From: Euryarchaeota archaeon UBA438
GTDB taxonomy: Archaea; Thermoplasmatota; Poseidoniia; Poseidoniales; Thalassarchaeaceae
Assembly (NCBI GenBank): GCA_002504435.1
Contig: DAQP01000043.1
Coordinates: 16,810-80,809 of the forward strand
DNA: 64,000 nt
Direction: 5' to 3'
How positions within the stretch are numbered: position 1 is the first letter of the stretch; every line of letters begins with the position of its first letter. The notes beneath the pieces are model-generated. The model was not told the origin of the DNA. It made no database searches and saw nothing but the letters and a program-made list of their open reading frames with translations. Both the position numbers and the translations under genes were made by a program. Positions 6,449-35,777 of this stretch are shown one piece after another.

Positions 6449-9400
6449 GTGAGAATATGGGGCGAACGTTCAAGTGGGTTACGAAAACCAAATTTGACTC
6501 TGATGACAGTTGATGCCACGCAAAAACTCCTTCCCATGAAAGTTGGGGCAGCTTTTGCAGTGTCGATTATGCTAGCTATGTCACTATCACCAATGTTGGC
6601 CACTACAGGGGTTTCGAGGAGCCTAGAAGATTCCAACGAAATGAGGAGTTCCGGAATCGACCCCTGGTCGGACGGTGGCCAAGCCTGGCCACAACCAGGC
6701 AGGACCCCCGATAGGGTTTCCAATCCTCCAGGCCATGTACATTCTTCGGATTCAGGGGGCGGCCTACTTTCAATAGTCGACCCGGTGATAAACTGGGATT
6801 TTGGTTCCGACCCCATAGGTACTGATTCTCTTGGCACACCTATTGCTGATTTCTCCTCGTCCCTAACCACTGACCCTTCCTCGGAAGAGAGGTGCGGAGG
6901 AGACTCGCTTTACACCATAATTGTACAGACTGACTCTGCATCAGGTGAGAGTTACATGAGAATAATTGAGGGGGAGGACTCTGATCTCGCATGGGAAGTT
7001 AGTCTCGGAGTTACAGAGAAAGTCAAGGCCTCACCTGTAGTTGTGGATTTGGATGACGATGGGAAGCCGGAGGTGATAGCGGTGTATGACCAAGGAGGGA
7101 CTCTGAATGTCGATGCGTGGTCGCCCAGGCTATTCTGCTCGGTTACCGGATGGAACCCCGGAGCAGGTAGTTCGCAACAGCCAATCTGGACCTGGGAGGA
7201 TGACGACTTGATGGTGAGTAGTGACGTTGGGGCTTATGTCAGTGGTTGGCTGGGGGGGCACAAGCCAACTGCCCAGCCACTTCTTGCCGACTTGGACCTT
7301 GATGGAGATGCAGAGTTGGTAGTTGCTGCGGTAAACGAGAACAGTGGGGATCCGGTCATTGTTGCACTGAGTCTGCCTTCTAGCGGCTCGCCCGCCACAC
7401 TTTGGGAAAAAACACTGGACAAGGGGAGCCATCCTTCTGACCCTGCTTTTGCACAGACGGATGAGAATACTGGCTATGTTGTACTGACGACCACCGAGTA
7501 CAGCAATGGCGGAATGTGGGTTTGGAGGCTTGACTCGTTGACGGGAGATTCGGGATGGGACGGCCTTAGCCTGAATAACATAGATGGCGACTCTGATGCG
7601 CCTCACATCAGACTCCCTGGTCCAGTTGTAGCCAATCTTGATGATGATGAGACTCCCGAAATTGTAGTAACCATACCTACAGATGCCGACGGATCGGGTG
7701 CTGTTGATGGCGCTGAATTCAGAGGTCTAGAAATCAGCACCGGTGCCGAGATATGGTCATTCGAGGCAGATAATGGGTACGCTGACGCGCCACCCATTGT
7801 TATCGATACAGACGATGATGGGACCATCGAGAGGGTCTGTTGGGTCACTTGGTGGCAAACTGCAACAGCTAGGCACGGAGTCACGGGTTGTCATGATGTA
7901 GATGGATCCAGCCCCGAAGAGGCATGGCACCGGGATCTCGAGCAGAGCAGCGGGGCGCCGAACGACGAGATAGCTGTCTCACCCCCAGTTTGGATGGATA
8001 TTGATGGTAGTGGGGAGCCTGAGCTCCTAGTCGCCTATGGGAGATCACTCTGGGCGTTCGATGGAGCGGAGGGAACTGGGTCTGCCATCAACACTGAGTG
8101 GGCCAATGAGTTGGAGTTGAACCACCGAACTTGGTCTTCACCTGCGTTGGCCGACATCGATGGGGACGGCACACTGGACATCATCATCGGTAGCACCGTT
8201 GTCTCGCTTGAGAGGTCCGACGTTAGACCCCTCCTTGATGGAGGGGGGATAGAGTTGGACCCAACTGCCCCCAGTCCAGGTGAGGAGGTCACGGTTTCTG
8301 CATTTATCGAGAACTCTGGAACAGGGCCCATAGATTCGGAATTTGATGCTGTCCTCTATGCCGATGGAGTAGAAATTGGGAGGAGGACATTCACATCTCT
8401 GGAACCAGTTGAGCCAACGGGATCAGGGTCCTTTGAAACATTCAGTGTTGAATGGTCGGGGCCACTTGGGGACCATGAATTCACATTGGAGCTAGACAGT
8501 TTCGGGAACCTGACTCAGACTAGGACGGACAATGATGTTGCTAGCAAGATTGTATCCATCGTCCCGACGTACAATGCTTCTTTCGAAATTCCGACTGAGC
8601 CCGTCAGGGTATCTCCAGGCAGTAGCACAACTGCTAGCCCGACTGTGAGGTCTACTGGGAGGCTCGCTGGGACATGGTCCCTCAGCATAGATGACTCCGA
8701 ACTTCCTGAGGGTTGGACGTGGTCGGACTCCACGCAGGAAGGAATTAGCAATGTCGAGATTGGAGTGGATGATACTTGGTCCCCTGATCTAACTATAACA
8801 GCGCCTTCGGAGGCACTTGGTTCTGACTCAGGATACCTATCTCTGACCCTGACCCTCGATGAAGACTCGAACGTTTCTGTTTCTGCAAATCTTCCAATAG
8901 AGGCGAATAGAACGAGGGGGCTCTCACTTAGAGGACCCGATGGAACGTCTCAGAGCAGCGGCTACGGACTACCTGGGCAGGATGCAGAAGCATGGTTCAT
9001 GGCCGAGAATCTAGGAAATGCCGAGGAGGACCAGATTCTCCTCTCATGGGACAGCACACCATGGGGCAATGACCTGCGCCTATACGACATGGAAGGGGCC
9101 GAAAGATCAGCGTTAATTTTGGCCCCCGGAGAAGAGTTGGCGTTAGTTGCAACCCTAGCCGTTCCTTCCGACGCACCCGTGGGAGATTCAGTTGGCACGC
9201 CTCTAACCATGTGCGTTGGCACGGGCACGGAAGAAGAGACCTGCCAGACCATACAATTAACATTCCATTCTTCGAACGTTGTTTCTGGAAATCACATCAG
9301 AAGCGTTCCCGCGAATGGACTCGAATGGTCGGTAATTACTGAAATGCCGGCTGAAAGCGGGACAATCACATGGTCACTTTCTGAAATGGGGATGGCGATG

Positions 9401-12133
9401 CCAGGGTGGTCTTGGATCGGAACTGGCGACATCTCAGTTTCAGGCGATATGATAACTATGACCGGCCCCTCTGGTGGAACATCTTCAGGTTCGTTAATTG
9501 CTAACCTCCCCGAGGACGCTTCTCCAGCATTCCACTATTTCTCAGACGCGAGTCAGGAGTCTACGGAACACCACCTAATCATAACATTGGAGGTATTGCA
9601 GATTTTCAGAGCGAATTTGGCTGTAATTTCGCCCCAAGATCAGCCGCATGTGGTTGATGTTGAGGAAGGCTCCCTTGTCGTCCTCAGACTCGAGAATCCC
9701 GGTAACGGCGATGACGTATACTCACTTGGCTATTCGGTGATTATAGACTCCAATATTTCCAGCGACCCTGGAGTAGTTGTGGAATTCTCGGTAGGAGAAG
9801 TCGGACTTACTTCGGGGAGCCTGACAACTATTCCAGTAACGGTAACTCTCCCTGAAAGTACGCCAGCAGGGGTTCCTTTGTGGCTTGAGTTCACCGTAAT
9901 GTCACAAGGCGACCCGGGAGTATCGTCCTCCGACACCGTTGCCCTTGAGGCCAGACAGGACCACAGGTGGGATATCGGCGCTAGTGTCGATTCTGTGCCC
10001 ATGGCCAATGGCAGTATTTTCGTCATTAATCCAGGGGTCTCGTTCTCCTTGGAAGTTGATGCGAAAAATGTGGGTAATCTGGAAGATGGAATCAATCTTG
10101 ATGTGATGACCTCGCTTGACCTAGTGGACGGAGACTCAGCTACAGGATGGAGCGCCACTGGAGACTCGGCGGAAAATGTCGCAGTCAACCAGACTGTTTC
10201 TATGAGCATAGTTTCAGCTGTCGATGCTGAATCATGGAGCGGATCATCCATGACCGTCGTAGTCACCGCATCCTCCCAAGGAGAAGAGGTTTCTACGTTC
10301 TCATTCACTATTGAGGCAGGCCATGTCCCATCATGGAACGCAATAGCTGATCAGGCGAATCTTGAGGTTGACCCATTTGGTTCGCAGATAGAGCTCACAG
10401 TTGTGCAGTCTGGTAACTCGCCCACTAGGGCATATGCTTCCATGTTCATTACAGGGGAGTCAGGGTGGTCCGTAGATGAGCCCGACGAGCTCCCTGTCCT
10501 TTCACCCGGAGAGACCGCGCCACTAATTCTCAACATCACCCCTCCAGAGAATGCGGTCTATGGAAGGGCCGTGGAGCTTCACCTCCGCCTAAGGGAAGGC
10601 GACTCTAGTGTGGTCTCCGAGATAGTTTTCCCACTAAGGGTGGCAGTCACGCATGAGTTCTCTCTTACCGGAGAAGGGGACTGGTTAGTGAGTGATTTGG
10701 GAGGGCACCCATTGGCCATGCTCGAAAACCTTGGTAACGCACCTAGCACCATCTCATTACAAGTTCTAAGTCTTCCACTTGGTTGGTCCGTCTCAGGAAG
10801 AACCGAAGTCGTACTGGGTGTTGGCGAGATAACCGGCGTACCACTAGAGTTGGTTCCTAGTGAAGACTGGGATGGCAGTGTGAAGACCATACGAATTCTG
10901 GCGGAAGATACAGCCGGAAACCAAAGGGAAATAAATCTGGATACCGAGAAGGGAGATTTTTCATGGGCGAGTTCTCCTGTCATAGTGTCCACTAGTGGCG
11001 ATAGCGCGCTTTTGGGAATTCATGGAACTGATTCCGGATCCATTGTCACTGATTCATTTTCAGGGTCACTGATTTGGAGTACCCTTGGCGGTTGGGCATG
11101 GCCGGCGACATCCAGTGGAAGTGGCACTATCTCGGTTTCATCGGGTTCCGACCAAGGAAGTCTGGAATACAAGTCAATAGTGGTGGAGCCAGTCACCAGA
11201 GGGGCTAGTTGCTTGGTTTATGGCAGCATTGGCGAAATTACGGCAAGCTGTTCGATAGGAAATGGTACCGAGCCTTTCGATTACACGATAATTCTAGTCG
11301 ACGACATGGGGGGCATGATGGTTTCCCAATCCGGAACCGTAGGGAGGAATACGACTGCAATAGTCAACTTGACCTCGGAAGAATGGGCTCCACTTCCGGG
11401 CAACAGGGAGATTTCAATCAGATTGCTGGACTCTAGGGGGATCCTAGTTACGTCCCAGTCCCAGATTTTCGAAGTTCGGAGAACGGATTGGAACGTCGGT
11501 TTGGTTCAGCTGGAACTGGATGGACAGGGTGCTAGCCAGAAAATTGAAATTTCCACAAGGAGGGAAAATTACGAACTGCTCCCTTCAGGGACGCAATGCA
11601 GCATAAAAATCGAAGCGGGGCAATACACTTCCGTCCACATGGTGGATATGACATCTGCAAATGCCCTAGCCCCTAAGCCATCTATAGATAGGCCAGATGT
11701 TGAGGATTCAACCGAGATGGTCGCCACGATAAGCTGTGACTTCCCGTGGGACCAGGATTCTGATCCTTCGGATAACGTGGCCAGCGTGATTCTTTCGGGT
11801 GGCGAAGAATTGGATAGTGGAATTAGCGATTCGAGCACGGCAGTTGCCGCGGCTGCCATGGTCATCGGTGCTTCGATTGCACTTTCATGGATGGTCAGCA
11901 ATTACAGAGAAGGCCGAGAGATGATGGAGAAAACCAGGTTGGCGGTAGAGAAGAAGGCCCTTGAGAAAAGGGCCGCTCTCAAGGAGAAAATGGCCGATGT
12001 CGAAGAGGAGGTTTTGCCTGAATCTGCTGATGAAGATAGGGAAAAGGTGGCCTCTGAGGAGCCGCCTGCCTCGGAAATTGGTCAGGACGATTCATTCGAA
12101 AGCCGCCTAAACAGACTCATGGGTGAAAGGTAA
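6449..12133 (+). CDS. Giant surface protein (about 1890 aa). Signal peptide, FG-GAP (integrin-alpha-like) beta-propeller, CARDB and multiple Ig-like domains, C-terminal TM anchor, Lys/Glu-rich cytoplasmic tail.
   Basis: The signal peptide MKVGAAFAVSIMLAMSLSPMLA begins at the internal ATG 6536, which is the likely true start. At least five FG-GAP-like Ca-binding loops (DLDDDGKPEVIAV, DLDLDGDAELVVAA, NLDDDETPEIVV, DIDGSGEPELLVA, DIDGDGTLDIIIG) appear within long W/G-rich strands. A CARDB-like module (PSPGEEVTVSAFIENSGTGPID...) follows. The C-terminal AVAAAAMVIGASIALSWMV helix is followed by EKKALEKRAALKEKMADVEEE. Confidence 0.8.
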   Translation: MRIWGERSSGLRKPNLTLMTVDATQKLLPMKVGAAFAVSIMLAMSLSPMLATTGVSRSLEDSNEMRSSGIDPWSDGGQAWPQPGRTPDRVSNPPGHVHSSDSGGGLLSIVDPVINWDFGSDPIGTDSLGTPIADFSSSLTTDPSSEERCGGDSLYTIIVQTDSASGESYMRIIEGEDSDLAWEVSLGVTEKVKASPVVVDLDDDGKPEVIAVYDQGGTLNVDAWSPRLFCSVTGWNPGAGSSQQPIWTWEDDDLMVSSDVGAYVSGWLGGHKPTAQPLLADLDLDGDAELVVAAVNENSGDPVIVALSLPSSGSPATLWEKTLDKGSHPSDPAFAQTDENTGYVVLTTTEYSNGGMWVWRLDSLTGDSGWDGLSLNNIDGDSDAPHIRLPGPVVANLDDDETPEIVVTIPTDADGSGAVDGAEFRGLEISTGAEIWSFEADNGYADAPPIVIDTDDDGTIERVCWVTWWQTATARHGVTGCHDVDGSSPEEAWHRDLEQSSGAPNDEIAVSPPVWMDIDGSGEPELLVAYGRSLWAFDGAEGTGSAINTEWANELELNHRTWSSPALADIDGDGTLDIIIGSTVVSLERSDVRPLLDGGGIELDPTAPSPGEEVTVSAFIENSGTGPIDSEFDAVLYADGVEIGRRTFTSLEPVEPTGSGSFETFSVEWSGPLGDHEFTLELDSFGNLTQTRTDNDVASKIVSIVPTYNASFEIPTEPVRVSPGSSTTASPTVRSTGRLAGTWSLSIDDSELPEGWTWSDSTQEGISNVEIGVDDTWSPDLTITAPSEALGSDSGYLSLTLTLDEDSNVSVSANLPIEANRTRGLSLRGPDGTSQSSGYGLPGQDAEAWFMAENLGNAEEDQILLSWDSTPWGNDLRLYDMEGAERSALILAPGEELALVATLAVPSDAPVGDSVGTPLTMCVGTGTEEETCQTIQLTFHSSNVVSGNHIRSVPANGLEWSVITEMPAESGTITWSLSEMGMAMPGWSWIGTGDISVSGDMITMTGPSGGTSSGSLIANLPEDASPAFHYFSDASQESTEHHLIITLEVLQIFRANLAVISPQDQPHVVDVEEGSLVVLRLENPGNGDDVYSLGYSVIIDSNISSDPGVVVEFSVGEVGLTSGSLTTIPVTVTLPESTPAGVPLWLEFTVMSQGDPGVSSSDTVALEARQDHRWDIGASVDSVPMANGSIFVINPGVSFSLEVDAKNVGNLEDGINLDVMTSLDLVDGDSATGWSATGDSAENVAVNQTVSMSIVSAVDAESWSGSSMTVVVTASSQGEEVSTFSFTIEAGHVPSWNAIADQANLEVDPFGSQIELTVVQSGNSPTRAYASMFITGESGWSVDEPDELPVLSPGETAPLILNITPPENAVYGRAVELHLRLREGDSSVVSEIVFPLRVAVTHEFSLTGEGDWLVSDLGGHPLAMLENLGNAPSTISLQVLSLPLGWSVSGRTEVVLGVGEITGVPLELVPSEDWDGSVKTIRILAEDTAGNQREINLDTEKGDFSWASSPVIVSTSGDSALLGIHGTDSGSIVTDSFSGSLIWSTLGGWAWPATSSGSGTISVSSGSDQGSLEYKSIVVEPVTRGASCLVYGSIGEITASCSIGNGTEPFDYTIILVDDMGGMMVSQSGTVGRNTTAIVNLTSEEWAPLPGNREISIRLLDSRGILVTSQSQIFEVRRTDWNVGLVQLELDGQGASQKIEISTRRENYELLPSGTQCSIKIEAGQYTSVHMVDMTSANALAPKPSIDRPDVEDSTEMVATISCDFPWDQDSDPSDNVASVILSGGEELDSGISDSSTAVAAAAMVIGASIALSWMVSNYREGREMMEKTRLAVEKKALEKRAALKEKMADVEEEVLPESADEDREKVASEEPPASEIGQDDSFESRLNRLMGER

Positions 12134-12146
12134 TCGGGGTTTCTCA

Positions 12147-12773
12147 ATGTCTAGAGCGCCTCCGACACCTGCATTCTACACATTCGACCCCATTACTGTG
12201 GACTTGATCGATCTTGTGCCCCCAATTCAAGCATCCCTGGGTGGAGATCACCGGGAGCTGCTTTCTATGTGCCCACTGTCTGTTGACATCCAAGGCCTCC
12301 GTCAGGGCCAAGAGGCCCCGTTTGATCCCGCCACATTGCTATACCTAGCTAGCGGGGACTGGGGGCCTAAGGGGGGCATGGCTGAGCCTCTTGACTCGAT
12401 GGCGACTAGAGAGAAGCTCGGCAGATTTCCCAGTGAAGACGGCAATGTGATTTCGTACCTTATCTCGTTCACTAGGCAAAGGGGCGACATGACTGTATTG
12501 CACGAGCTACTTGCTAAGCTTTGTGACGGGCTATCTGAAGAGAATCTTGGAGAACCGGGATTCAGGGATGGTTTCGGTGGAATGTCCCTTCTTGGGTGGA
12601 TTGACCCGCGGGAAGTTAGTGAGTTGAGGTCCTCGATACGTTCTGGAAGATGGACTACGTTGGGAGATGAGCCACTTGATGGAGGGGTAGACTATGGATT
12701 TAGGCACCTTCTGTCAATACTAAGATCGGCAGAAAAAAGGGGATGTGGGATTCTAATGAGAAGGCACTCATAA
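12147..12773 (+). CDS. Hypothetical protein
   Basis: The open frame abuts and overlaps the end of the giant surface-protein gene. No recognisable motifs. The start is placed at MSRAPP; the track ORF starts at 12123. Confidence 0.35.
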   Translation: MSRAPPTPAFYTFDPITVDLIDLVPPIQASLGGDHRELLSMCPLSVDIQGLRQGQEAPFDPATLLYLASGDWGPKGGMAEPLDSMATREKLGRFPSEDGNVISYLISFTRQRGDMTVLHELLAKLCDGLSEENLGEPGFRDGFGGMSLLGWIDPREVSELRSSIRSGRWTTLGDEPLDGGVDYGFRHLLSILRSAEKRGCGILMRRHS

Positions 12774-13685: not shown

Positions 13686-13731
13686 GTCACGTTTCGGAAG
13701 GGGCACGACGATGAACATTACTGACGTGATG

Positions 13732-14709: not shown

Positions 14710-14782
14710 GGAGTAATCAGGGGGCGATTTGACTTAGAATTGGCGGTCCGCCTAGACTATATCCAAGGAAGAATGCCAGAGA

Positions 14783-17746: not shown

Positions 17747-17750
17747 TACC

Positions 17751-20547
<2,797 letters not shown>

Positions 20548-20737
20548 ACCGTTCCCTGCGAGCCTCCGAGAGTATGCTTCCCCTTGAATGGCACTCTATC
20601 TTGAATTTCAGAAAAATTGTACAATGGAAGTGTAGGTCATGCTCATTGTATTTCATATGCATTTCAATTGAGATACAATTAAGACCCCTTGCCTCTCTGT
20701 GCGGCTCGGAGGAAGCAAGTTGGCCGGCCACAGCCCA
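20548..20737. promoter_or_regulatory. AT-rich divergent intergenic region between the HD hydrolase (-) and the RHH regulator (+). It contains nested palindromes CATATG, ATGCAT, CAATTG and TATA-like stretches.
   Basis: ttgtatttcatatgcatttcaattgagatacaattaag lies 50-90 nt upstream of the RHH ATG. GGAGG lies 20 nt upstream of that ATG. This is the only strongly AT-rich patch in the neighbourhood. Confidence 0.3.
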
Positions 20738-21158: not shown

Positions 21159-21289
21159 ACCAAATTTCGAAGGTCTCTTGGACCGAGCAAGAAAGGCTAG
21201 TTCAACGATGAGCGCCGAGGCCTAGATAGTGTCATTCTCCGTAGTCTGAACCCAATCTTCTTGGTCGTTCTACTGGCAGGGCCCTTTCC

Positions 21290-23311: not shown

Positions 23312-23336
23312 TCGGGCCATTGGGGGCAACGATAGC

Positions 23337-26800: not shown

Positions 26801-29800
26801 AATGTCGAGGAACTCCCCTGCAGCTGGGTTGGAAGTAATTGGGTCGAATGTAATGTTGGTTGGCGACCTGACTGTGATTGTGTTGATTATCGTGGACGAT
26901 GGATGGAGTGTGTCTGAACCATTTGAACCATTGAACATCAGAACTATCGGAATCAAACCGAGAGGGTGCGAATGAGGGACTGAGAATGTGAAGTTGACGA
27001 TACCTTGTCCATTTGTCGGTTGTTCGGGAGTTAGCCACGTATCGTGGAACAATGCGGAAACCGGCATGTCGGAAAGTTGCCTGTCCCCATCGCTAGATTC
27101 TACCAGCTTTGCTCCGAATGTTATGGATGTCCCCCTGTCTACTATTGTATTGAGGAGGGGGTTCCTTTCAGTGAACTGGGTGACGCCTCGAACCAGGATT
27201 GTTTCATTCCCAGAACCGGTAAGGTAGAACGGGGTACTGCCGTTTTCAACGCTTACTATGACAGTCTTGAGGCCGTTAGTCACGCCATCCCCCAGCGGAT
27301 CAGTTGGCACCATTATCGAGAACGATCCGTTAGCTGCGGTGACATGTCCTGTGACCAGAGTCTCACTGGGGTCGTTCAGGAAAAAGACCTCCAGCGTCAT
27401 GGGACCCGATACTGAGCGATTCTGGTCCACTCCATCTAGGACCTGCCCCTGCAGTTGGAAAAACTGCCCGGCGGTGACTTCGGGCAATGGAGCATTGTCA
27501 ATTCTGATGCTACTCGCGACCTGCACGGTGAGGTTCACTGTGCTCTCATTCCCTATCCACCTGCCTGCATTGGGTGTGGTCAGACTATCAGTTAGGTCAT
27601 CCGGTGCGTGTAGGCGGACATCATAGTACCCGGGCGGAGCGTCAGCAGGAATGGTCGGAGTGAACCTTGCGACGCCATCTGAACCCGTGACTGTGGAGTT
27701 GAGTACCTGCTGCAGGGGCCCTCCCCAATCGAAGTAAATGTCGACGGTAGTGTTCTGCAGCCTGTCATTACTCTCCACATCGGTGACTGTGGCATTCGTC
27801 ACCAATGTCTGGCCTGCAATCACGATCGACTGCAATGGCTCTGCCTCCACTACGTACTCGGTCTGTACGCCTGCTTGGAGCACCACTGCACCGGAAACAA
27901 GGTAGTAGGCACCACCCGTGGGGGGGTTCTTCTCGAAATCAAGGATCAGTCTGAGGTCGTAGACACCAGCACCGACACCGCTAGGCATCTGGAATGTAAT
28001 GTTGTACTCGCCGGTAGTGTTGTCTATCCACTGCTCCCCCAGTCTGTAGGTTACTGGTGGTGCTTCCAGGCCATCGGGAGTAGGTGGTTGGTCGGATGGC
28101 ACCTCCATATTCACAATGATGGAAGAGTTGTTTCCTAGAATCGTGCTGTTCAGATTGATGTCCCTGGCGAAACCAGAAATCCAAGATGATTGCCCTCTGG
28201 GAGTCCATTCCGAACCCAGTGTGAATGAGACGTCAGCCCTACCTTGGACTCTGACGGTATCTAACACGCTGTTGGGAAGAAGCCATGTGGAACCGCTATA
28301 ATTCAGCTGCCACGGGTAGTCCCCCGCCTCCACATCTATAGTGGGCCTCCATGTTACCATCACGCGCGGGAGCTCTGGGTCTGACTGATTCCATACCAAC
28401 TCGCCGTTGAAGTCCAATGAGTAGTTCCCAACGAAGCTCGCAACGGAGTTTCCAGTATGGTCTGACAATGTCACTTCTACCTCGGAGTCTGACCCCACGG
28501 GAGCTGGATTCAGAATATAGCTGAAATTTACGTAACTCTTTACTCCGTGCTCATCGATTACCACAGACTCGTCTTTCGCGAAGAGGCCGTCCGCCTCAAA
28601 CTGGTAACGAATCTCTACCAGACCAGCGGGAATGGGGACCTCTGATGCAGAGAAGGACCAATTGACAGCAAATTGCCCGAGGGCCCCCGTCCAATCGGAG
28701 TCGTTAAGATACCATGAATTGAGAGTTGTAAAGGGGCCGTTGGCTGCGGATCTTCGCATCTGTAGTGTAAGGGTGCCATTGAGTGCCTCTGGGATGGTCG
28801 ACCTACTCAGAACGGTGCCGTTGAGGTATATTGGCTGGTCGACCTCAAGGATGGTGTTGTTAGCCCCATGTCCCTCCAGGGTTACGGTAAGGTTGGGTGC
28901 TGGTGTTAGGTTTAGGTTGAATCCGACTGACTGGGGGCGTAAGTGATAGAGGGGGGTGCTTGCATTGTTGAGATCCTCCTCGTGCCAGCCTAGGAAATTC
29001 AAGGTTGCAGCTATCAGCCCCTCCTGTTCAGATTCGTCTATTGGGACGGAGAATTCGTAATAGCCGCCAGCCCCGACGCTGGAGATTAGGCTAACTGGGC
29101 CATCAGCTGTGGTTGTGTAGTTGAGAACCACCTGTAGGCTATCTAGTTGAGTAATGTCATTGTAAGGCTCACTTGAGAGAGAGATCTCGCCTGTTACCGT
29201 AGTGTTCACTCCAATTCCTATCTTTGGCTCGTCCACCGGCTCTGGTTCAGTAATTGACATGTCTACATCGTCAGTGATGTTCATCCTCCAGGGGAAGGTA
29301 ATCCCCTGTGAACCGACGTACCCATTCTCATAAGTTCGAAGAACCAGGGCGCCATATCCTGGATTAATGACCTCTTGGGGCTGCCCTGTTATGTTGAAGG
29401 AGCCATTCTCGTCCGTAATTGCTGTGCCAACGAAATGCTCCTCTAATGCAGCGGAACCGGGGACGTTCTCCGTCTGATTGGATCTTACCAAGTACATGTC
29501 AATGGTGATGTTCGCCACAGAGGTCTGATTTTCAGTGAACCTCAGTATTCCATCCAGGGAAATATTGCCCGATGAAAGGTCCCTGTCGAACCAGATTGGA
29601 CCCCAGCTCTCGTCCACTACCTCGACTGTAGACAGGGATGGACATGCCTCGAAGGGGATCCAGCCGAGATCTGCGTTACCCAGATTGGAGTTTGTCTGGA
29701 GGTGCACCTCTACCCAGGTTGTGAAGTCCTTACCGTAGACCTCGAAAGACGTACCAGTCCACTTCCCTCCAGAGAAACCCGTGACTTTACGGGCAGGGAT

Positions 29801-32770
29801 TCCCGCGGACCTTAGCATCACGGCGAAAAGAGTGCTGAACTGGTCACAGTCACCCTCAAACGAGTTGTTCAGAATCCAATAGGACAGGTCATCCTCGTCA
29901 TCGAGAACCCCGACTTCGGTCCCGTTATGGTTTCTCAGGAAAGAGGTAGTCGAGTTACCATTAATGATGAAGTCCTGGATTGCGGACACCCTGTCCCAAG
30001 CGGAGAACGCCCCTGACTCATTGATTACTGTCATTGTTATTGAGTTGACAAAGCTGGCGGCATTGCCCTTTGCCAGATATGAGCTTGGGAGGTCCGTCGC
30101 ATAACTGCTATTGGAGAACTCTGTTGTATTTTCCCTAATCGCCTGGGTGATCAGAACTTGCGGGGCGGTAACGAAGAGCGTGTCTATGGTTGCACCGTCC
30201 ACTATTGCATCCCTGGTGAAATTCGAGAAGTTGAGGCCAGCATTAGCATCGGTCCATCCAGTATAGTTGACAGCGTTATGGGGTACGATAATTTCCTCGC
30301 CAGGGAAGATCAGTGCCCCTGACTCAAGTGATATCTCCCAGCCAAGGACCTCAGATCCATCCCAGAACTGCTGGTCGGCAACACCCTGTGTGGTCGAGAA
30401 ACCCGGGAACATCTGCGTATTCCCAACGAGACTAGTGTTGACCCCCCAAGAAATCCCGGTATAGAAGTCATAGGTATGCCACCTCCAGTAATGCGTAATA
30501 TTGGGGTCCACCCCCATTGAGGTGTTCATCGCCTCGAAGAACATCATGTTGGGGTCTATATCATCCGTCGGATCCCACGGATTTCCATCGGCGTTCAGAC
30601 AATTAATGTCCCAAAACTCTGATGTGCACTCCTGTCCATCGGGAACTCCCCCTCCATCGGTATCCGGATCCCTCCAGTCAGTGCCCGTAGAGTTCTCAAT
30701 GGTGTCTGGTATCCCATCTCCATCGGTATCTACTGGATTTAGGTCATCGTTAGGATTATTCTGAGGGTTCGTTCCATCCAGATACTCCTGGAAATCAGTA
30801 ACGCCCCCGTTGTCAGTGTCGGTTACATTCCACAGTGTGAAGTAGGTATCAGTAGTGCCGTTTCCACCCAAGTCGCCGAATGCAATCAAGCAAACTGTTG
30901 TATTCTCAAAGTAGTTGTTTAGACCGTCCCCATCTGAATCCAGAAGGTTATCACATGGATTGCTAGGGTCGGTTAGATTGAGTATCTCATCTAGGTCATT
31001 CACCCCGTCCCCATCTGTGTCGGACATGTTCCAATCGGAAAGGAATCCAAAACTCCCAGTAGATTCCTCCCAATCGGCTAGCCCATCCCCATCAGTGTCG
31101 AAATAGTCATCGTCGCATATTGGATCGTTGGAGAAACCTAGGGATTGATCCCAGCACCAAGAGAAGTTGACGAATGTAACAGATGTGGCATCAGGTGGTT
31201 TGTCCGTGTCTATGCCCCTCAATGCATCGCCATTGATGGAAGTGAACCTAAATCCTGTGAGGCTGCCGTTTGTTGATGACACGTAGTATCCCATGGGTTC
31301 GCCATTCTGCCTCCAATCCTCGGGTGTCTGATCGAGTGCGGATGTATCATTTAACGTGAGAATCATGTTTGTGGCATCGAAGTCGACTATTGACAGATTC
31401 AGTGTTTGAAGCGAAGTGCAGGGGTCTGTTCCGTGAGACGGGTCAAGCTCCGAGCCGTCACTAATCCCTCCGCCGTCAGTATCTGCAACATTCCAGAGGG
31501 TACATGTCATGTTTTCCTCCCAGTTGGGTATGCCGTCGTCATCGAAGTCACCGGAATCCTCAATCCTTGTTGGATCCGTCTCATTTTCATCCACAATGCC
31601 GTTCCCGTTGAGGTCCTCCTCTCCGTCGTCAAACTGGTCATCATCCGTATTGTTGTCCCTTGGGTCGCTTGCCAGAGGGGGGTCCCCGTACTGGCCATTT
31701 ACCTCCACACCATCACTAATTCCGTCACCATCGGTGTCAGGGGATGTTGGGTCGGTCAGCAGAACGAGTGCTTCGTAAGAGTCGTTGAGTCCGTCCCCAT
31801 CAGTGTCGTTATTCTGGGGGTCTGTGGAAGTAATGCCGTCGACCTCTGCCGTGAAGATCAGGCACCCACCGGGTCCAAGTTGCAGTACTGGGTTGCAGGG
31901 GGATTCAGTAGCAGTCATGGCTAGTGGGCCTGGTCTGAAGTACTGTGTGGGCGGGGTAGTGGTTCCATTTCGGGTCCCCCAAGCTGGGTTAATGAACTCC
32001 TTCAGGTTCACTAGCCCGTCTCCATCAGGGTCCCCCGATGCCCCATCTTGATTGGTGCGTGAAGTGGGGTCTAGCCCATTTGCAACTTCCCAACCGTCGG
32101 GCATGCCGTCGCCATCGGTATCCCAGCCATTTGGATCCTCATCGATGAGGCCGTCACCGTCATCGTCATCACTTGTGCAGTTCGCATCACCGTCACCGTC
32201 ACCGTCGAAATTGTCGACCATCCCATCCTTGTCATCATCAAATGTGTTGAAGCAAATGTTTCCCCACGGATCCTCATCAGCTCCGTCGGAACCTAGCCCC
32301 TGTATGAGTTGCATGGCGCTTTCCTCGTCCCAGTTACTCACGGGTACAGTGCCATTCCACCAAACGCCGTTGTCCAGCTCATTTGGGGTGTTTGGGTCAT
32401 CCCAGTTCGCAGGTATGCCAAACATCAACTCATTCAGGTTTGAGAGTGAGTCTCCGTCTGGATCGCCCGTGGATCCGTTATCGCCTGTAGATGAGAGTGG
32501 ATTCAGGCCGTACTGCCATTCCCACCCGTCAGGAAGACCGTCATTGTCCGTGTCCCAGTCCTGGGGCTGGGTATTGATGTAGAACTCGAGACCGTAAGAT
32601 AGGCCATCTCCGTCCTGATCGGTTGAAGCCAGCGCCTCCCAAGCAGCGAACTCCAATGCCGAGTACGAAGAAAGGAGCATCAGGGCCGAGAAAATTATGG
32701 CTGACCTGCTCTTCCTGAGGCCGTCCTTGTCCAACCCTGTAGATTGACTAAATGAGTCCATGCTACGCAA
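23807..32770 (-). CDS. Giant (2987 aa) TgpA-like surface protein. N-terminal TM/signal, about 15 thrombospondin type-3 Ca-binding repeats, a transglutaminase-like cysteine-protease core, more than 15 predicted Ig-like/beta-sandwich domains, a TM helix, and a DUF4129-like cytoplasmic tail.
   Basis: TSP3 repeats DxDxDGxxDxxE at residues about 50-715 (DTDNDGLPDGWE, DTDGDGMPDGWE, DTDGDGISDGVE, DTDGDGLADWEE, VDTDGDGIPDTIE ...). The TGase core starts at about residue 970: GDCDQFSTLFAVMLRSAGIPARKVTGF ... TTWVEVHL ... GWIPFEA (Cys-His-acidic). The C-terminal AMTALAILVIIGLAAAGVIVLRRRKQ helix is followed by FLRRDFETVREFE...ARYSSH, which resembles the tail of bacterial TgpA-type transglutaminases. Confidence 0.85.
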   Translation of the reverse strand: MRSMDSFSQSTGLDKDGLRKSRSAIIFSALMLLSSYSALEFAAWEALASTDQDGDGLSYGLEFYINTQPQDWDTDNDGLPDGWEWQYGLNPLSSTGDNGSTGDPDGDSLSNLNELMFGIPANWDDPNTPNELDNGVWWNGTVPVSNWDEESAMQLIQGLGSDGADEDPWGNICFNTFDDDKDGMVDNFDGDGDGDANCTSDDDDGDGLIDEDPNGWDTDGDGMPDGWEVANGLDPTSRTNQDGASGDPDGDGLVNLKEFINPAWGTRNGTTTPPTQYFRPGPLAMTATESPCNPVLQLGPGGCLIFTAEVDGITSTDPQNNDTDGDGLNDSYEALVLLTDPTSPDTDGDGISDGVEVNGQYGDPPLASDPRDNNTDDDQFDDGEEDLNGNGIVDENETDPTRIEDSGDFDDDGIPNWEENMTCTLWNVADTDGGGISDGSELDPSHGTDPCTSLQTLNLSIVDFDATNMILTLNDTSALDQTPEDWRQNGEPMGYYVSSTNGSLTGFRFTSINGDALRGIDTDKPPDATSVTFVNFSWCWDQSLGFSNDPICDDDYFDTDGDGLADWEESTGSFGFLSDWNMSDTDGDGVNDLDEILNLTDPSNPCDNLLDSDGDGLNNYFENTTVCLIAFGDLGGNGTTDTYFTLWNVTDTDNGGVTDFQEYLDGTNPQNNPNDDLNPVDTDGDGIPDTIENSTGTDWRDPDTDGGGVPDGQECTSEFWDINCLNADGNPWDPTDDIDPNMMFFEAMNTSMGVDPNITHYWRWHTYDFYTGISWGVNTSLVGNTQMFPGFSTTQGVADQQFWDGSEVLGWEISLESGALIFPGEEIIVPHNAVNYTGWTDANAGLNFSNFTRDAIVDGATIDTLFVTAPQVLITQAIRENTTEFSNSSYATDLPSSYLAKGNAASFVNSITMTVINESGAFSAWDRVSAIQDFIINGNSTTSFLRNHNGTEVGVLDDEDDLSYWILNNSFEGDCDQFSTLFAVMLRSAGIPARKVTGFSGGKWTGTSFEVYGKDFTTWVEVHLQTNSNLGNADLGWIPFEACPSLSTVEVVDESWGPIWFDRDLSSGNISLDGILRFTENQTSVANITIDMYLVRSNQTENVPGSAALEEHFVGTAITDENGSFNITGQPQEVINPGYGALVLRTYENGYVGSQGITFPWRMNITDDVDMSITEPEPVDEPKIGIGVNTTVTGEISLSSEPYNDITQLDSLQVVLNYTTTADGPVSLISSVGAGGYYEFSVPIDESEQEGLIAATLNFLGWHEEDLNNASTPLYHLRPQSVGFNLNLTPAPNLTVTLEGHGANNTILEVDQPIYLNGTVLSRSTIPEALNGTLTLQMRRSAANGPFTTLNSWYLNDSDWTGALGQFAVNWSFSASEVPIPAGLVEIRYQFEADGLFAKDESVVIDEHGVKSYVNFSYILNPAPVGSDSEVEVTLSDHTGNSVASFVGNYSLDFNGELVWNQSDPELPRVMVTWRPTIDVEAGDYPWQLNYSGSTWLLPNSVLDTVRVQGRADVSFTLGSEWTPRGQSSWISGFARDINLNSTILGNNSSIIVNMEVPSDQPPTPDGLEAPPVTYRLGEQWIDNTTGEYNITFQMPSGVGAGVYDLRLILDFEKNPPTGGAYYLVSGAVVLQAGVQTEYVVEAEPLQSIVIAGQTLVTNATVTDVESNDRLQNTTVDIYFDWGGPLQQVLNSTVTGSDGVARFTPTIPADAPPGYYDVRLHAPDDLTDSLTTPNAGRWIGNESTVNLTVQVASSIRIDNAPLPEVTAGQFFQLQGQVLDGVDQNRSVSGPMTLEVFFLNDPSETLVTGHVTAANGSFSIMVPTDPLGDGVTNGLKTVIVSVENGSTPFYLTGSGNETILVRGVTQFTERNPLLNTIVDRGTSITFGAKLVESSDGDRQLSDMPVSALFHDTWLTPEQPTNGQGIVNFTFSVPHSHPLGLIPIVLMFNGSNGSDTLHPSSTIINTITVRSPTNITFDPITSNPAAGEFLDISGTLTSSNGSGIVDRSGNALNPTLNFAIDGDTNSFSVTGGTVDANGTWSARIFLDLSFPRGTHNITASYTPSVNYYGASSEDGIFDSRGFSMLSIISPTDLDPDERTVRGDNITLNMSLIDNSGQFVSGAQVDISIDGAPAWSGLTNEDGIVTTVIPTDSNRAPGPMTITATFAGFNGTTGLLGDETWTRVVILAPTVLDVTSITGSAIAGESVTFTGTLLDEHGAPLIEDGEEKGGVVHLSIDGIDVGPLYTSISNSSTGIWSITYDLPLDTDYGDHTFTVDFLGGFTWVDPMGQGDSLNPEYYLPSSITQEFNATQTSQVVLTTPPGEVDRNELLLIEGMLTDGAGRVLPGRDLDVYMNDQFLTSLSVSDNGTFSLFFPVPPDMPLGPRNVRIEFGGEEFVIASNSSTIFTVFGPVEVSVEQPVPVAVGDVLQLRGSVKDNLPDGWLGNHSLQIFIDGILIGTTTTDEDGSWSHSWVVSEFLDVGQHTLTVIAPNQGYHREGSVEANLTIAYHTGMTLQVENNVVTRGGAWNLSGRLFDADSTGNPGLEGRVLSFLLDGEEVSTITTSIDGTFSISHELGYLISRGSHDVSLVFAGEQLYLSNSINATVYARADIQIEILFLEDEVVRSDGNRPIRVLGRIIEIGGEGNTMEEMDLSLYWDESLRPNTKITWDETTGQFLVESNAISTMPPGVASMSIVVDPDSSRFLNGGEIEFEVIIKVPVNFEFLPDSLFLEIGQSSMSGKVNVTATDRAEAIEGVSITARLVNESSTHFTVVGVTDQNGIFTYQFESFHENHPLWDRDFWGDLSVEFSSDSDIIDPIDAARLSQFAVVDVEYQPEQGASLVGPAMTALAILVIIGLAAAGVIVLRRRKQAAIDELAGVFSYTAELLAAGDEVREAIFNCYEGLCQILMSRGFLRRDFETVREFELAIRNALPISEQALLSLDRIFEEARYSSHVLGEPHRESAQMALSSVLQEIDQLEEVPSREASIVPQE

Positions 32771-32843
32771 CCCCTTGTACTAGGGCGGAAAGTAGGGCAC
32801 TTAAGAGGAATGGAGCGTCGTTCGGACAATGACTCGCTACTAA

Positions 32844-35777
32844 TCAAACCAGTTCGATGTCGTCATCCTCGTATACATCGTCCTCTTCCTCTTCTATCGA
32901 CACAACTGGAGCGGGTAAATCATCGTCCTCTTCATCTTCCAAATCATCATCTGAATCACTGGAAATTGCATCTAAATATGCCATATGTGCCTTCCACCTT
33001 CTCCTGTTCATAGCGCCTTGGATCCCTGCGATGAGTAGCATTGCTGCAACTATTCCCACGATGTAAGTTGAAAGTCGGGGGTGTGTAATCTCGTTTACAA
33101 GTCTGTCAATTAGTGACGAAATTCCCACTCTCATCACGACGGTCTTCTCAGCCGTAGCATCATCGGGCCAGCTCTGCTGCGTGTCGAATGGGGTTGCCGA
33201 AACTAGGACATCTGCGGTCTCGCCATTGTTTGCAGAGTCGGGTACGTTAACGTCCAATACGAATGTGACTTCTTCGAATGCACCAAGCACTATCAGAACC
33301 GACCCCGACGGGCCGTCGATGTCAACGGACCAACCGGTCCCGTCAACTTCAGCCTCCAAGAGTACGGTGAGAGGACTGTTGCCCAAGTTCTTGACCTTCA
33401 TCTGGATAGGGTATGACTCCCCCGGAACTAGAAGTCGATTGGGCGTTACTTGTACGATTTCCAAGTTGGGGTCATCGGGATCAATCTCAAACACCATTGG
33501 CAAGTCAAAGTACTTGGCATCGTCATCAGTGGTATCTTCGACTATTCTGAGGTAAACTGTGTGATTGCCAAACTCTACCTGATTTGTCAAAGTGATGGTC
33601 ACGAATACCTCGGTTTCATCGCCCGGGGCAAGAGAGACCCTAGGAACGGCATTACCCGACGAGTCCTCAATTCTGAATTGCCACTGACCGTACGCGGCGT
33701 TTCTATCGGTGTTATCGTCCAATGAAGCTGGATTCTGAATCCTCCACCATGTGGCGGATTCGCCGGATGTCATCGTATTGGTGATCTTTGCCCTCAGAGA
33801 TACTTCTGCGTTTCCTGGCCCGGGGTCGCACAGAGAAACCCTGATGTGGCCAAGTGGTGAACCATCGCAGTCATAGGAAACCTCGGCCCTTATTCCAAAT
33901 GTGCGTTGGATAGTGAATAGTACCGTGGACCTCAGAGAGGCGTTTCCAGAACTTACCACCTCTATCTCAACTGGGCCGATGTCGGGGTCTTCTCTGTCGG
34001 CCGAGGGCTTGATCATCAGCCTCAGCGTTTGAGTGTCGTGCCTATCCAAGAGAGCTGTATGGAAAGTGCCGTCACCTTCGTCCTCCAGAATTCTCTGACC
34101 AGTGTCATTATCGTACACGTGAATGATTGACTTGGATCTTTGTAGTACGTCGATCCTGAATGTGTCAGCATCGAAACCGGTGTTGAAAATCTCAAGAAGG
34201 AATGGGGTGAATTGGTCATAGTCGACATACCTAGGTATGGTTGAATCAATGTCATCAGGGCGTGAAGAGTTTGCTATTGGGATGTCATGGTCCTCTGACC
34301 ATATGGATACTTGTGGAGGTTGGTAAACGTCGATCTTCTCCAAGTCAATCTGAAGAGTGTCCTGGTGAACGACGGTAAGTACGCCGTCGACCTCTGCTTC
34401 TGCAACAGCTCTGATATCTATGGAGCCTGGTGCACCTGTAAGATCCTCAGGTGCGGTGAGAGTAAGTATTGGATTCAGAATATCTCCTCCAGCATTGAGT
34501 GTATATCCGCCTGGTGAGTCGAATTCTAGCAACCATGAGCTTGGGAAATTTGTTAGGACCTCTAATTCCACGTCCATCGACTTCGTAGAGTCTCCCCTGT
34601 GAACTAGTTGGAGTGGAACGGGGGTTGTTTGTCCGGGAGCTATGTATTCTGTAGTTCGGTCCAGCCTATGGTTCAATGCAACTCCCCACTGCTCCATTGT
34701 TACAGGTTCATGCTCGATTATGACGCTATTACCTTGGATGTCAGAAACCTCGAGTTCGACAGAATATTCCCCGGATGGGATGCCGCTAGGGTATGACCAG
34801 AGGTACTCTCCAAAGATGCCTTGGCTTGTGTCCTCTATTTCCTCGTCGTCCTCATCGATTACGTGGTCTATCCGGTACATTCCGTCGGGATCCCGCATCA
34901 ATAGCCTTACCGAGTCTACGTCATACCTGCCAAAACTGCTCTTGACATCGAAGGAGAACTGCATAACCCTCTCAGACAGGATGTCATTCGGAAACCATTC
35001 CAACTCTGGCCCCTCTGCGAGTTCTGCACCCTCCCTCTGTAGGAGAACAAGGCTGTTGGATATTGCGTTTGCCTCAATCTCTAGGGTGCTGAATCTGTCG
35101 TCGCCGTCTATCTCATTCCATGCCACCTCGGCCTCGCAACTAGAGCCGAATGGGCTTCCACTACTGTCACAACCAGACATATCGGCATCGACAATTAGTT
35201 CGAGGCGCTCGTCCTTGTCTATAGTGAATCTCTGGTCGTTCCCTAGGTCGATTTCAAATGTCTCATGGTCAAAACTGCAGCTCTGAGTAAGTCCTGGATT
35301 GCATGCATCAGTGCTCCAAGAAACCGAACCGACTTGACTACCTGATGACTTGAGTGTGATTGTCCACTCCACGGAGGAAGTGTCAGGGCCTGTCGCCCTC
35401 ATGAATAGCCCCAGTGGCAAGTAGTAAGATCCGGAGCCTGAGCCATGATTGGGGCGTCCGGCTACATCCAAAGAAGACAGCATAGGACTAGTTCGGAACT
35501 CTATGCTGCTGTCTAGGGCGCTCATCGACTCTTGGCCCCCTGATTCGGGAACCTGTGTTGTGATGTAACCATCACCGCCTGCAGAAGAATTCTGGGAAGC
35601 GAAATACATTGTATAGAGATTCAACTGGACATCTGAGCCTGCTTCCATCCTGGCTTCTTCTGGAAGCTCGTATTGGTGGTTGGAAAGCATGCCAAAGGGC
35701 ATCAACATCAGCAGGGAAAGTGCCAGGGCCAGCCTGAAACGGCGGGACGCGCTATTCGCTATGCTGCTCGCATACAC
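32844..35777 (-). CDS. Large (977 aa) secreted, membrane-anchored surface protein with Ig-like/CARDB-like domains and a poly-acidic cytoplasmic tail
   Basis: Signal peptide MYASSIANSASRRFRLALALSLLMLMPFGM. Long beta-rich ectodomain. C-terminal helix YIVGIVAAMLLIAGIQGAM with RRRWK stop-transfer, then DDDLEDEEDDDLP...EEEEDDVYEDDDIELV. It is co-directional with the giant TGase gene, 73 nt upstream of it. Confidence 0.7.
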   Translation of the reverse strand: MYASSIANSASRRFRLALALSLLMLMPFGMLSNHQYELPEEARMEAGSDVQLNLYTMYFASQNSSAGGDGYITTQVPESGGQESMSALDSSIEFRTSPMLSSLDVAGRPNHGSGSGSYYLPLGLFMRATGPDTSSVEWTITLKSSGSQVGSVSWSTDACNPGLTQSCSFDHETFEIDLGNDQRFTIDKDERLELIVDADMSGCDSSGSPFGSSCEAEVAWNEIDGDDRFSTLEIEANAISNSLVLLQREGAELAEGPELEWFPNDILSERVMQFSFDVKSSFGRYDVDSVRLLMRDPDGMYRIDHVIDEDDEEIEDTSQGIFGEYLWSYPSGIPSGEYSVELEVSDIQGNSVIIEHEPVTMEQWGVALNHRLDRTTEYIAPGQTTPVPLQLVHRGDSTKSMDVELEVLTNFPSSWLLEFDSPGGYTLNAGGDILNPILTLTAPEDLTGAPGSIDIRAVAEAEVDGVLTVVHQDTLQIDLEKIDVYQPPQVSIWSEDHDIPIANSSRPDDIDSTIPRYVDYDQFTPFLLEIFNTGFDADTFRIDVLQRSKSIIHVYDNDTGQRILEDEGDGTFHTALLDRHDTQTLRLMIKPSADREDPDIGPVEIEVVSSGNASLRSTVLFTIQRTFGIRAEVSYDCDGSPLGHIRVSLCDPGPGNAEVSLRAKITNTMTSGESATWWRIQNPASLDDNTDRNAAYGQWQFRIEDSSGNAVPRVSLAPGDETEVFVTITLTNQVEFGNHTVYLRIVEDTTDDDAKYFDLPMVFEIDPDDPNLEIVQVTPNRLLVPGESYPIQMKVKNLGNSPLTVLLEAEVDGTGWSVDIDGPSGSVLIVLGAFEEVTFVLDVNVPDSANNGETADVLVSATPFDTQQSWPDDATAEKTVVMRVGISSLIDRLVNEITHPRLSTYIVGIVAAMLLIAGIQGAMNRRRWKAHMAYLDAISSDSDDDLEDEEDDDLPAPVVSIEEEEDDVYEDDDIELV

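Follow-up and report, generated by a model that had tools for sequence, protein, structure and literature searches.

Whether three very large surface-protein genes located close to a tRNA-Leu gene form a variable genomic island or belong to the core chromosome of their host, and which role the encoded proteins could play at the cell surface, is the question raised by a 64,000-nucleotide (nt) stretch of DNA from Euryarchaeota archaeon UBA438 (contig DAQP01000043.1), which is referred to as the window. The three genes are named G1, G2 and G3, and the tRNA gene beside G3 is tRNA-Leu(UAA). The block was found to be vertically inherited core chromosome and not a genomic island. It is considered probable that this part of the chromosome in Marine Group II (MGII) encodes three constitutive, lineage-defining surface proteins, for which a role in the cell envelope or in adhesion is proposed. 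MGII are the most abundant planktonic archaea of the surface ocean (PMC6461757) and remain uncultured (PMC6864105). No description of the cell envelope was found in the MGII literature searched. A literature search pairing Marine Group II with transglutaminase returned no papers, and the pair of G2 and G3 is undescribed in the literature searched.

The window is judged to be chromosome of an MGII (Poseidoniales) archaeon of the Thalassarchaeaceae (MGIIb) type, based on its archaeal core genes, on the names of the homologs and on its identity to environmental contigs. The core genes include those for RpoE'/Rpb7, DTD2, eRF1, NOG1, ArgRS, XPD, CarB and, together with lipoyl synthase, a 2-oxoacid dehydrogenase complex. 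For each of the three giants the homologs originate from marine metagenomes, the named ones being assigned to Thalassarchaeaceae, Poseidoniaceae, Marine Group II and Poseidoniales, and TARA Oceans contigs are 99.9-100% DNA-identical to the window over 13-23 kb. An apparent combination of a 91% identical G2 beside a 100% identical G3 on the TARA contigs turned out to be an artefact of the cluster representative, as the DNA has the near-complete identity just given.

The initial annotation had reported open reading frames (ORFs) of 1894, 2987 and 977 amino acids (aa) next to a tRNA-Leu(UAA), about 18 kb of coding sequence in total, and a topology of signal peptide, transmembrane (TM) helix and tail for each protein. 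All of this was reconfirmed, with a summed coding length of 17.6 kb, and orthologs and public gene calls point to other likely true starts for G1 and G2 (Table 1). Hydropathy shows a single hydrophobic segment at the N-terminus of each giant and a single TM helix towards the C-terminus, the latter followed by basic residues and by tails of 78, 127 and 54 aa in G1, G2 and G3, respectively, the signal peptides being assigned from hydropathy alone. All three are very acidic proteins (15-18% Asp plus Glu) and are predicted to be single-pass, N-out, C-in, type-I membrane proteins. The domains described earlier were likewise recovered by Pfam, i.e., FG-GAP, CARDB and NEW3 in G1, a transglutaminase (TGase) domain and a marginal DUF4129 in G2 and, below threshold, immunoglobulin (Ig)-like modules in G3. 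The giants are not paralogs, as the sole BLASTP match among them is a 47-aa NEW3-like segment shared by G1 and G3. G1 is not contiguous with G2 and G3, from which it is separated by 11.7 kb of housekeeping genes (12134-23806), namely purC, an ABC transporter, GDH, an HD hydrolase and XPD, with one small ORF at either end.

The evidence for a core location comes from synteny. In a scan with one genome per GTDB species, relatives of G3 were found in 196 genomes, and the best 80 loci were scored. A full-length G2 ortholog directly follows G3 in all 62 loci with at least 9.3 kb of downstream sequence, and the start of G2 is visible after G3 in 78/78 loci with at least 1.5 kb. Lipoyl synthase (LipA) is encoded upstream of G3 in 62/62 loci and XPD downstream of G2 in 56/61 loci, and tRNA-Leu(UAA) lies within 1 kb upstream of G3 in 69 of 70 species loci at a uniform spacing of 118-273 nt. 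The order PDH, LipA, SDR, tRNA-Leu, G3-like gene, G2, small ORF and XPD is kept on a 1-Mb contig (L005), the G2 of which is 41% identical, and the same order from PDH to XPD was found in a named Thalassarchaeaceae genome (L006, G2 45% identical). With the tRNA outside the scan, it was likewise recovered from L090, a named Poseidoniaceae genome (G2 41% identical), and from locus L091, which encodes a G2 (P0375) that is 31% identical over the full length. The tRNA-Leu occupies the same slot in L001, L005 and L006. For G1, the neighbourhood RpoE'-Spt4-S24e-S27ae, G1, an ORF of ~207 aa, purC and ABC transporter is kept at 51-53% identity of G1, and in L007 (G1 53% identical) the synteny extends through GDH and HD to XPD. 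The lengths of the proteins are similarly constant, with medians of 1887 aa for G1 (standard deviation 18), 2982 aa for G2 (32) and 977 aa for G3 (6) among the 120 best homologs of each giant.

Composition and sequence context agree with a core location. The G+C content (GC) of the block is flat at ~0.51 (0.50-0.52), the GC at third codon positions is 0.51-0.57 for the giants vs 0.47-0.59 for housekeeping genes, and the codon-usage distance of the giants to the rest of the window is equal to or smaller than that of housekeeping genes of at least 400 codons. The check for deviant composition proposed in the initial annotation thus shows that the giants match their flanks and the housekeeping genes. 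Its statement that no integrase is present holds, since no integrase was found among the window ORFs scanned near the block. No duplicate of the tRNA-Leu 3'-end, as expected for an attachment (att) site, was found at up to three mismatches. A possible att site at 19469-19493 (+), with a 20/25 match to the tRNA-Leu 3' end and a 12-nt exact core, was judged to be a chance match, because it lies inside the conserved HD-hydrolase gene and the synteny is invariant.

In the initial annotation the block was read as a variable or island region, and conserved synteny in relatives was named there as the observation speaking against it. Conserved synteny is what was found, by which the island idea is refuted. 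That the block is an accessory, strain-variable cell-surface island integrated beside tRNA-Leu and carrying adhesion or sensory genes is thus regarded as very improbable. The features that agree with it are the adjacency to a tRNA gene, which is a criterion of genomic islands and is found here with a distance of 117 nt, the density of giant surface genes, and the slot between tRNA and G3 in MGIIa, which has taken up one extra YHYH/He_PIG gene at least once, at the family level. These are outweighed by the invariance of the synteny over 62-70 species loci and deep lineages, by the housekeeping genes that separate G1 from G2, by the native composition and codon usage, and by the uniform spacing of tRNA and G3 with neither integrase nor att duplicate. 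The tRNA-Leu(UAA) is therefore a fixed syntenic neighbour and not an integration site, and the proximity of a tRNA together with a cluster of giant genes is a poor indicator of an island.

Two observations on related loci can be added. Poseidoniaceae-type loci contain an extra surface-protein gene of 739-807 aa (PKD, He_PIG, YHYH) between tRNA-Leu and the G3-like gene, which is found in no Thalassarchaeaceae locus and constitutes a family-level difference in an otherwise fixed region. Furthermore, a complete MGII G3-G2 locus (L029, PBAZ01000027.1) was found in a metagenome-assembled genome labelled as Chloroflexota bacterium, which is almost certainly mis-binned.

Table 1. Coordinates of the features of G1, G2, G3 and their surroundings; positions refer to the window unless a locus is named.
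Feature	Position	Strand	Size or residues	Basis or remark
G1, mechanical ORF	6449-12133	+	1894 aa	
G1, likely true start 6503	6503-12133	+	1876 aa	orthologs, public gene calls
G1 TM helix	11840-11896	+	aa 1798-1816	hydropathy, 17-ortholog alignment
G1 TM helix with tail	11840-12130	+		hydropathy, 17-ortholog alignment
Soluble ORF after G1	12147-12773	+	~208 aa	starts 14 nt after G1 stop
G2, mechanical ORF	23807-32770	-	2987 aa	
G2, likely true start 32761	23807-32761	-	2984 aa	orthologs, public gene calls
G2 cytoplasmic DUF4129 domain (predicted)	23810-24190	-	127 aa	Pfam, alignment, AlphaFold2
G2 TM helix	24191-24247	-	aa 2842-2860	hydropathy
G2 stalk of Ig-like modules (Big_3_5/MG2-like)	24965-29569	-		iterative HMM search, Pfam
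G2 transglutaminase-like core	29645-29884	-		PF01841, 49.3 bits vs cutoff 23
G2 TSP3-like repeat region, predicted Ca-binding	30644-32620	-	aa ~48-706 (~650 aa)	Pfam TSP3_bac, motifs, NCBIfam
28-nt non-coding element	32800-32827	-	28 nt	G3-G2 spacer
G3	32844-35777	-	977 aa	
G3 acidic tail, net charge -19	from 32847	-	54 aa	C-terminal to TM; hydropathy, alignment
G3 TM helix	33009-33065	-	aa 905-923	hydropathy
tRNA-Leu(UAA)	35895-35980	+		divergent from G3, 117 nt upstream of G3
Extra YHYH/He_PIG/PKD gene	L005 4416-6839; L090 4709-6928			

G2 is the largest of the three proteins, and its homologs align with 99-100% coverage down to 41% identity. Besides the TGase core, Pfam matched TSP3_bac (37.5 bits) and Big_3_5 (73.4 bits) as well as Big_7, Big_1 and MG2. 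The N-terminal TSP3 region contains 9 strict DxDxDGxxD and 17 relaxed calcium (Ca)-binding motifs and is predicted to bind Ca. No other part of the ectodomain is as well conserved; on average, 0.7-0.8 of the 28 sequences have the residue of the query here. The partial NCBIfam matches of G2 to CglD and MtsD are sub-threshold and cover the repeats only. Between core and membrane, an iterative search with hidden Markov models (HMMs) detected 12 related Ig-like modules of ~90-100 aa (aa 1068-2602), which is a lower bound; by spacing, ~17 modules are estimated to fit into this region. The stalk is less conserved in sequence (0.35-0.6), and 10-14 modules were counted in all 28 G2 orthologs examined, showing that the stalk has a constant architecture, unlike an array of repeats that expands. 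G2 contains 86 N-glycosylation sequons against an expectation of 32.8±5.2 based on composition (z=10.2). Each of the 27 orthologs has 70-99 sequons, and 47 of the 86 positions are common to at least 50% of the sequences. No such enrichment was found in G1 and G3. The ectodomain of G2 appears to be selected for dense N-glycosylation, and G2 is a predicted glycoprotein.

The TGase core follows the N-terminal signal segment and precedes the TM helix, i.e., it lies on the extracytoplasmic side, and its best sequence match of solved structure is Pseudomonas aeruginosa TgpA (6g49, E=0.0017). The catalytic His of TgpA (DAHAWVEY) aligns to a Thr in G2 (DFTTWVEV). The nucleophile Cys does not vary among the 28 orthologs; their His slot is occupied by T/S/R/Q/W and their Asp slot by E/Q/D/H, and the Cys-His-Asp triad is thus not intact. 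The conservation of the core is moderate (0.5-0.6). Distant TGase proteins that share the tail of G2 keep the motif HxWxE (HAWAEV, HAWSEV, HTWAEI), which is absent from all MGII-type giants, the loss of the His therefore being a derived trait of the giant clade. As the catalytic His is lost, the TGase fold of G2 probably binds instead of catalysing. In the MGII-type giants, the second residue behind the Asp slot is an additional Cys that is specific to the clade, and the active-site Cys may form a disulfide with it.

The cytoplasmic tail of G2 is under strong constraint. DUF4129 scores 24.4 bits in G2, just below the cutoff of 24.8, and G2 orthologs carry precomputed PF13559 matches. The tail (conservation 0.78) and the TSP3 region are the two best-conserved parts of G2. 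In an alignment of 15 sequences that spans the order (A2), 33 of 127 tail residues are invariant, including the motifs LRRxFETVREFE and ARYS. AlphaFold2 predicted a compact five-helix domain that is continuous with the TM helix (pLDDT 87.4, pTM 0.78), for which a Foldseek search against the PDB returned generic helical bundles only (best E=0.18) and no significant neighbour. Among 1.84 billion representative proteins, a profile of the tail matched 2327 at E≤1e-3, with 322 left at 1e-10 and 24 at 1e-30, and the domain is C-terminal in nearly all of the 2327 matches. MGII giants, whole or as fragments, make up the top tier. Below it (E ~1e-20) are mostly Ig-like proteins of 1100-1430 aa with a C-terminal DUF4129 confirmed by Pfam, including one or more with the label Thermoplasmata, and the tail was also found in proteins of ~300 aa and of 1900-2650 aa. 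A TGase core of the G2 type is present in only 12 of 68 long tail-bearing representatives. One of these 12, P0383, combines TgpA_N, TGase, Ig and DUF4129 and by its architecture bridges bacterial TgpA and the MGII giants. The tail is thus an anchor module that is used again and again at the C-terminus, and G2 follows the TgpA-type design in giant form. A literature search for DUF4129 returned unrelated papers only.

Among the tail-bearing proteins, a 1193-aa Ig/DUF4129 protein is encoded on a Thermoplasmatota-type contig (L089) beside other giant surface proteins (15572-19582 and 1-740), i.e., one of more than 3500 aa with Peptidase_C11 and many PKD domains and a PKD protein of 1211 aa. This indicates that giant surface proteins are common in related lineages.

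G3, which directly precedes G2, belongs to no known family. Its ectodomain is predicted from secondary structure to be all-beta; Pfam returned only sub-threshold NEW3/Ig matches with one NEW3-like module near the C-terminus, and a profile search against PDB sequences found no relative. An AlphaFold2 model built from an alignment of 27 sequences of at least 70% identity was unusable (pLDDT 40.6). Homologs of G3 have 925-986 aa and are conserved along the whole length, and orthologs occur in the same position down to 33% identity. In the acidic tail, the motifs [LI]P[ADE]PV and, at the C-terminus, DDD[IL]EL[VL] are retained in L005, L006, L090 and L091, i.e., down to 33% identity of G3 and in the locus with the most divergent G2 (L091, 31% identical). 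A Tat-type signal (SRRFRL) considered for G3 was rejected, as the RR pair is not conserved in orthologs. As the invariant upstream neighbour of G2 across the order, G3 would most simply be a partner subunit of G2.

G1 differs from G2 and G3 in its layout. It comprises an FG-GAP beta-propeller region with four Dx[DN]x[DN]G Ca-loop motifs, an Ig-like stalk of CARDB and NEW3 modules, the TM helix and the tail. The Pfam scores are 42.4 bits for FG-GAP_3 (PF13517, cutoff 26.9), 28.5 for CARDB and 34.3 for NEW3. Orthologs of 1833-1911 aa align with 95-100% coverage down to 51% identity, and a profile search against PDB sequences found no solved relative, integrins included. In the tails of 17 orthologs a juxtamembrane helix (N-x-R-E-..-L-M-E) and a C-terminal motif ([DE][DE][FY][DE]xR[LF]xRL) are conserved and the acidic linker between them is variable; the C-terminal motif may resemble an ESCRT MIM1 motif. 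The soluble ORF downstream of G1 is found directly after G1 also in L007 and L008 (51-53% identity of G1) and ends in a conserved CG[IL]LMRRH; it has no Pfam match even at E≤1. It is a candidate for a co-transcribed, cytoplasmic partner of G1. The idea that the three tails differ and matter for function is supported by their conservation across deep divergence, with a confidently predicted DUF4129 fold in G2 and terminal motifs in G3 and G1.

The spacer between G3 and G2 contains a conserved element of its own. The gap measures 73 nt if the mechanical ORF is taken and 82 nt if G2 begins at the ATG of the public gene calls; for L005, L006 and L090 such calls give ~110-190 nt. Within it lies the 28-nt element GTCCGAACGACGCTCCATTCCTCTTAAG, of which one copy was found per Thalassarchaeaceae G3-G2 junction examined, in 85 of 89 loci. 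Nearly all of its positions are at least 90% invariant among 78 distinct sequences, despite variable flanks and an identity of no more than ~60% between the adjacent proteins. The element, one half of which is GTCCGAACG, contains a TATA-like TTAAG box and ends 35-45 nt before the start of G2, followed by a conserved purine-rich block. In the MGIIa-like locus L005 the spacer contains a copy matching at 19 of 28 positions, which is preceded by a hairpin and a T-run after the G3-like gene. No second copy was found elsewhere in the window, showing that it is not a general promoter motif there, and G3 has its own upstream block, cGAACGCTTTAAC, which is less conserved. A structured RNA was rejected, as there is no Rfam match and the fold z-score is +1.08, and a scan of the window for bacterial promoters and terminators was uninformative, the host being archaeal. 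GTCCGAACGACGCTCCATTCCTCTTAAG is a probable dedicated promoter or operator of G2, with TTAAG as TATA-like box. The two genes had been suggested to form an operon based on their common direction and the gap of 73 nt. Direction and gap were confirmed and co-regulation of G3 and G2 is plausible, but because of the promoter-like element conserved in the spacer, and with the hairpin and T-run in L005, a simple bicistronic operon is doubtful.

How these proteins could act together is proposed as follows. G1, G2 and G3 would be constitutive components of the MGII cell envelope, forming a glycoprotein coat or tether, stabilised by Ca, whose binding heads would be held out tens of nanometres away from the membrane. 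The head of G2, consisting of the TSP3 region and the His-less TGase fold, would be positioned distally on a stalk of fixed length with at least 12 Ig modules, while its five-helix DUF4129 domain, being under the strongest constraint, would couple to a cytoplasmic partner. The conserved tails may in the same way connect the other envelope proteins to partners in the cytoplasm. G3 would be the likely partner subunit of G2 with its own conserved acidic tail peptide, and G1 would be independent and show an integrin-alpha-like layout.

An alternative that is compatible with the envelope role is that the giants primarily are Ca-dependent adhesins, which attach MGII cells to particles, to phytoplankton or to each other; as their main function this is possible, yet rather doubtful. 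Thrombospondin-annotated genes are widespread in Poseidoniales and were read as adhesion genes (PMC6461757), Ca-dependent adhesin domains were reported in MGII (PMC4511931), and the literature ties these domains to particle attachment. The TSP3 repeats resemble, below threshold, those of Myxococcus MtsD and CglD, and a long Ig stalk with a distal head is the typical geometry of an adhesin. The FG-GAP propeller of G1 also agrees with this alternative. However, giant adhesins are usually variable in their repeats and patchy in occurrence, whereas length and module number are fixed here and no sampled lineage lacks the genes. Moreover, the most constrained part of G2 is cytoplasmic, and coastal MGII populations were reported to be mostly free-living (PMC6864105). 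A more far-reaching proposal, thought to be unlikely, is that G2 and G3, perhaps with G1, form a transmembrane linkage following the logic of integrins, in which DUF4129 docks the acidic peptide of G3 or a cytoskeletal or regulatory partner, and G2 is the principal coat (S-layer-equivalent) glycoprotein of MGII. If this linkage exists, it would give a first functional handle on DUF4129, a domain that occurs in more than 2000 representative protein clusters.

The conservation of the tails could also mean that the giants are outside-in receptors, as in the sensory apparatus suggested in the initial annotation, in which a ligand or force acting on the ectodomain is passed via the TM helix to a signalling tail. 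The strongly conserved cytoplasmic parts, the predicted folded tail of G2 that continues its TM helix and the conserved soluble ORF after G1 agree with this proposal, but neither the tails nor the neighbours, the latter being housekeeping genes, were found to contain a signalling domain, be it kinase, cyclase, HAMP, PAS or another, and the tail fold resembled generic bundles, making receptor function decidedly unlikely. Finally, G2 could be an active extracellular cysteine enzyme, i.e., a transglutaminase, protease or amidase like TgpA, PeiW/PeiP or WbmE, that cross-links or remodels the envelope with G3 as substrate or scaffold. Its core scores above the Pfam threshold with an invariant nucleophile Cys, and the related periplasmic domain of TgpA possesses TGase activity, the gene being critical for viability (PMC3507681). 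Against such an activity stand the loss of the His in all MGII-type giants, while distant tail-bearing relatives retain it, the variable Asp slot, the moderate conservation of the core and the clade-specific Cys, which suggests that the active-site Cys is now part of a disulfide; an enzymatic role is regarded as improbable.

For the envelope proposal itself, several points weigh on the other side. Classical S-layer proteins are smaller, evolve faster and are without folded cytoplasmic domains, and bacterial TgpA-like genes occur with MoxR/DUF58 partners, which are absent from the window and the related loci. The invariant Cys of G2 may still support a non-canonical activity. What points to a partnership of G2 and G3 is solely their adjacency, and the fold search of the tail returned only generic bundles. 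For G1, all relatives retrieved are at least 51% identical and the named ones belong to Thalassarchaeaceae, and in MGIIa loci G1 was not found within 10 kb of G2. Lastly, one in-situ metatranscriptome of MGII was reported to be dominated by disordered collagen-like surface proteins, with the TGase giants unmentioned (PMC5069720), and given this dominance of collagen-like transcripts it is unlikely that G2 is the single most abundant coat protein.

G2, G3 and the spacer element constitute a testable, lineage-wide set of candidates for the MGII envelope. They are targets for metaproteomics, glycoproteomics, cell sorting based on antibodies or fluorescence in situ hybridisation, and for the interpretation of cryo-electron tomography, and the MGII giants offer a natural system for learning the function of DUF4129.

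Further genes of the window showed unusual features. A small ORF at 23337-23816 (+; mechanical start 23265) is convergent on G2, overlaps its last 10 nt and keeps its place downstream of XPD in every lineage examined, with lengths of 139-158 aa. A profile search returned nothing better than weak matches below threshold, to small heat-shock proteins (E=0.14-0.38), with an alpha-crystallin-like C-terminus as a hint only. At 14783-16978 (+) a protein of 731 aa combines a C-terminal ABC permease (BPD_transp_1) with an N-terminal BNR/Asp-box, Ycf48-like beta-propeller; this fusion, which is unusual for a binding-protein-dependent permease, is also found in L008 (795 aa). A 600-aa M28 peptidase at 45829-47631 (+) carries an N-terminal SAP domain, which normally binds DNA or chromatin, in an odd combination. 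The archaeal release factor aRF1 encoded at 49387-50634 (-) shows zinc-ribbon/treble-clef-like matches at residues ~326-362, inside domain 3.

Among known systems, the Myxococcus proteins CglD, of the gliding-motility adhesion complex, and MtsD, which acts in cell-cell cohesion, share with G2 the arrays of TSP3 repeats in a surface protein. The scores of 79.7 and 53.1 are far below the equivalog cutoffs of 400 and 800, respectively, and architecture, anchoring and lineage differ. G1 resembles the alpha chain of integrins in having an FG-GAP propeller with Ca loops, an Ig-like stalk, a TM helix and a short conserved tail. In contrast to integrins, its stalk consists of CARDB and NEW3 modules and not of thigh and calf domains, there is no profile match to solved integrins, and no partner resembling a beta-subunit (VWA/beta-I) was found in the window or in the G1 loci. 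With archaeal S-layer and surface glycoproteins the giants share the predicted secretion signal, the acidic ectodomain and the single C-terminal TM anchor, and G2 in addition the sequons. The haloarchaeal type of cell-surface glycoprotein is much smaller, has few cytoplasmic residues and forms the dominant lattice, whereas G2 possesses a cytoplasmic domain of 127 aa that is predicted to be folded, a TGase fold and TSP3 repeats.

The bacterial protein TgpA (PA2873) from P. aeruginosa shares with G2 the order of an extracytoplasmic TGase core, a TM helix and a C-terminal DUF4129. TgpA is an inner-membrane protein of 668 aa encoded in a four-gene operon. Its N-terminus has five TM helices (DUF3488/TgpA_N), its periplasmic TGase domain is active in vitro and retains the Cys-His-Asp triad intact, and a sixth TM helix comes after this domain (PMC3507681). 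G2 differs from it with its 2984 aa, a single N-terminal hydrophobic segment without a PF11992 (TgpA_N/DUF3488) match and the absence of the catalytic His, and it adds ~650 aa of TSP3 repeats and at least 12 Ig modules and is paired with the 977-aa G3. What would be new in comparison with TgpA is a giant variant of the TGase/DUF4129 design that, judged by its sequence, is catalytically degenerate and that is fixed across the order together with a conserved promoter-like element and an invariant partner gene.

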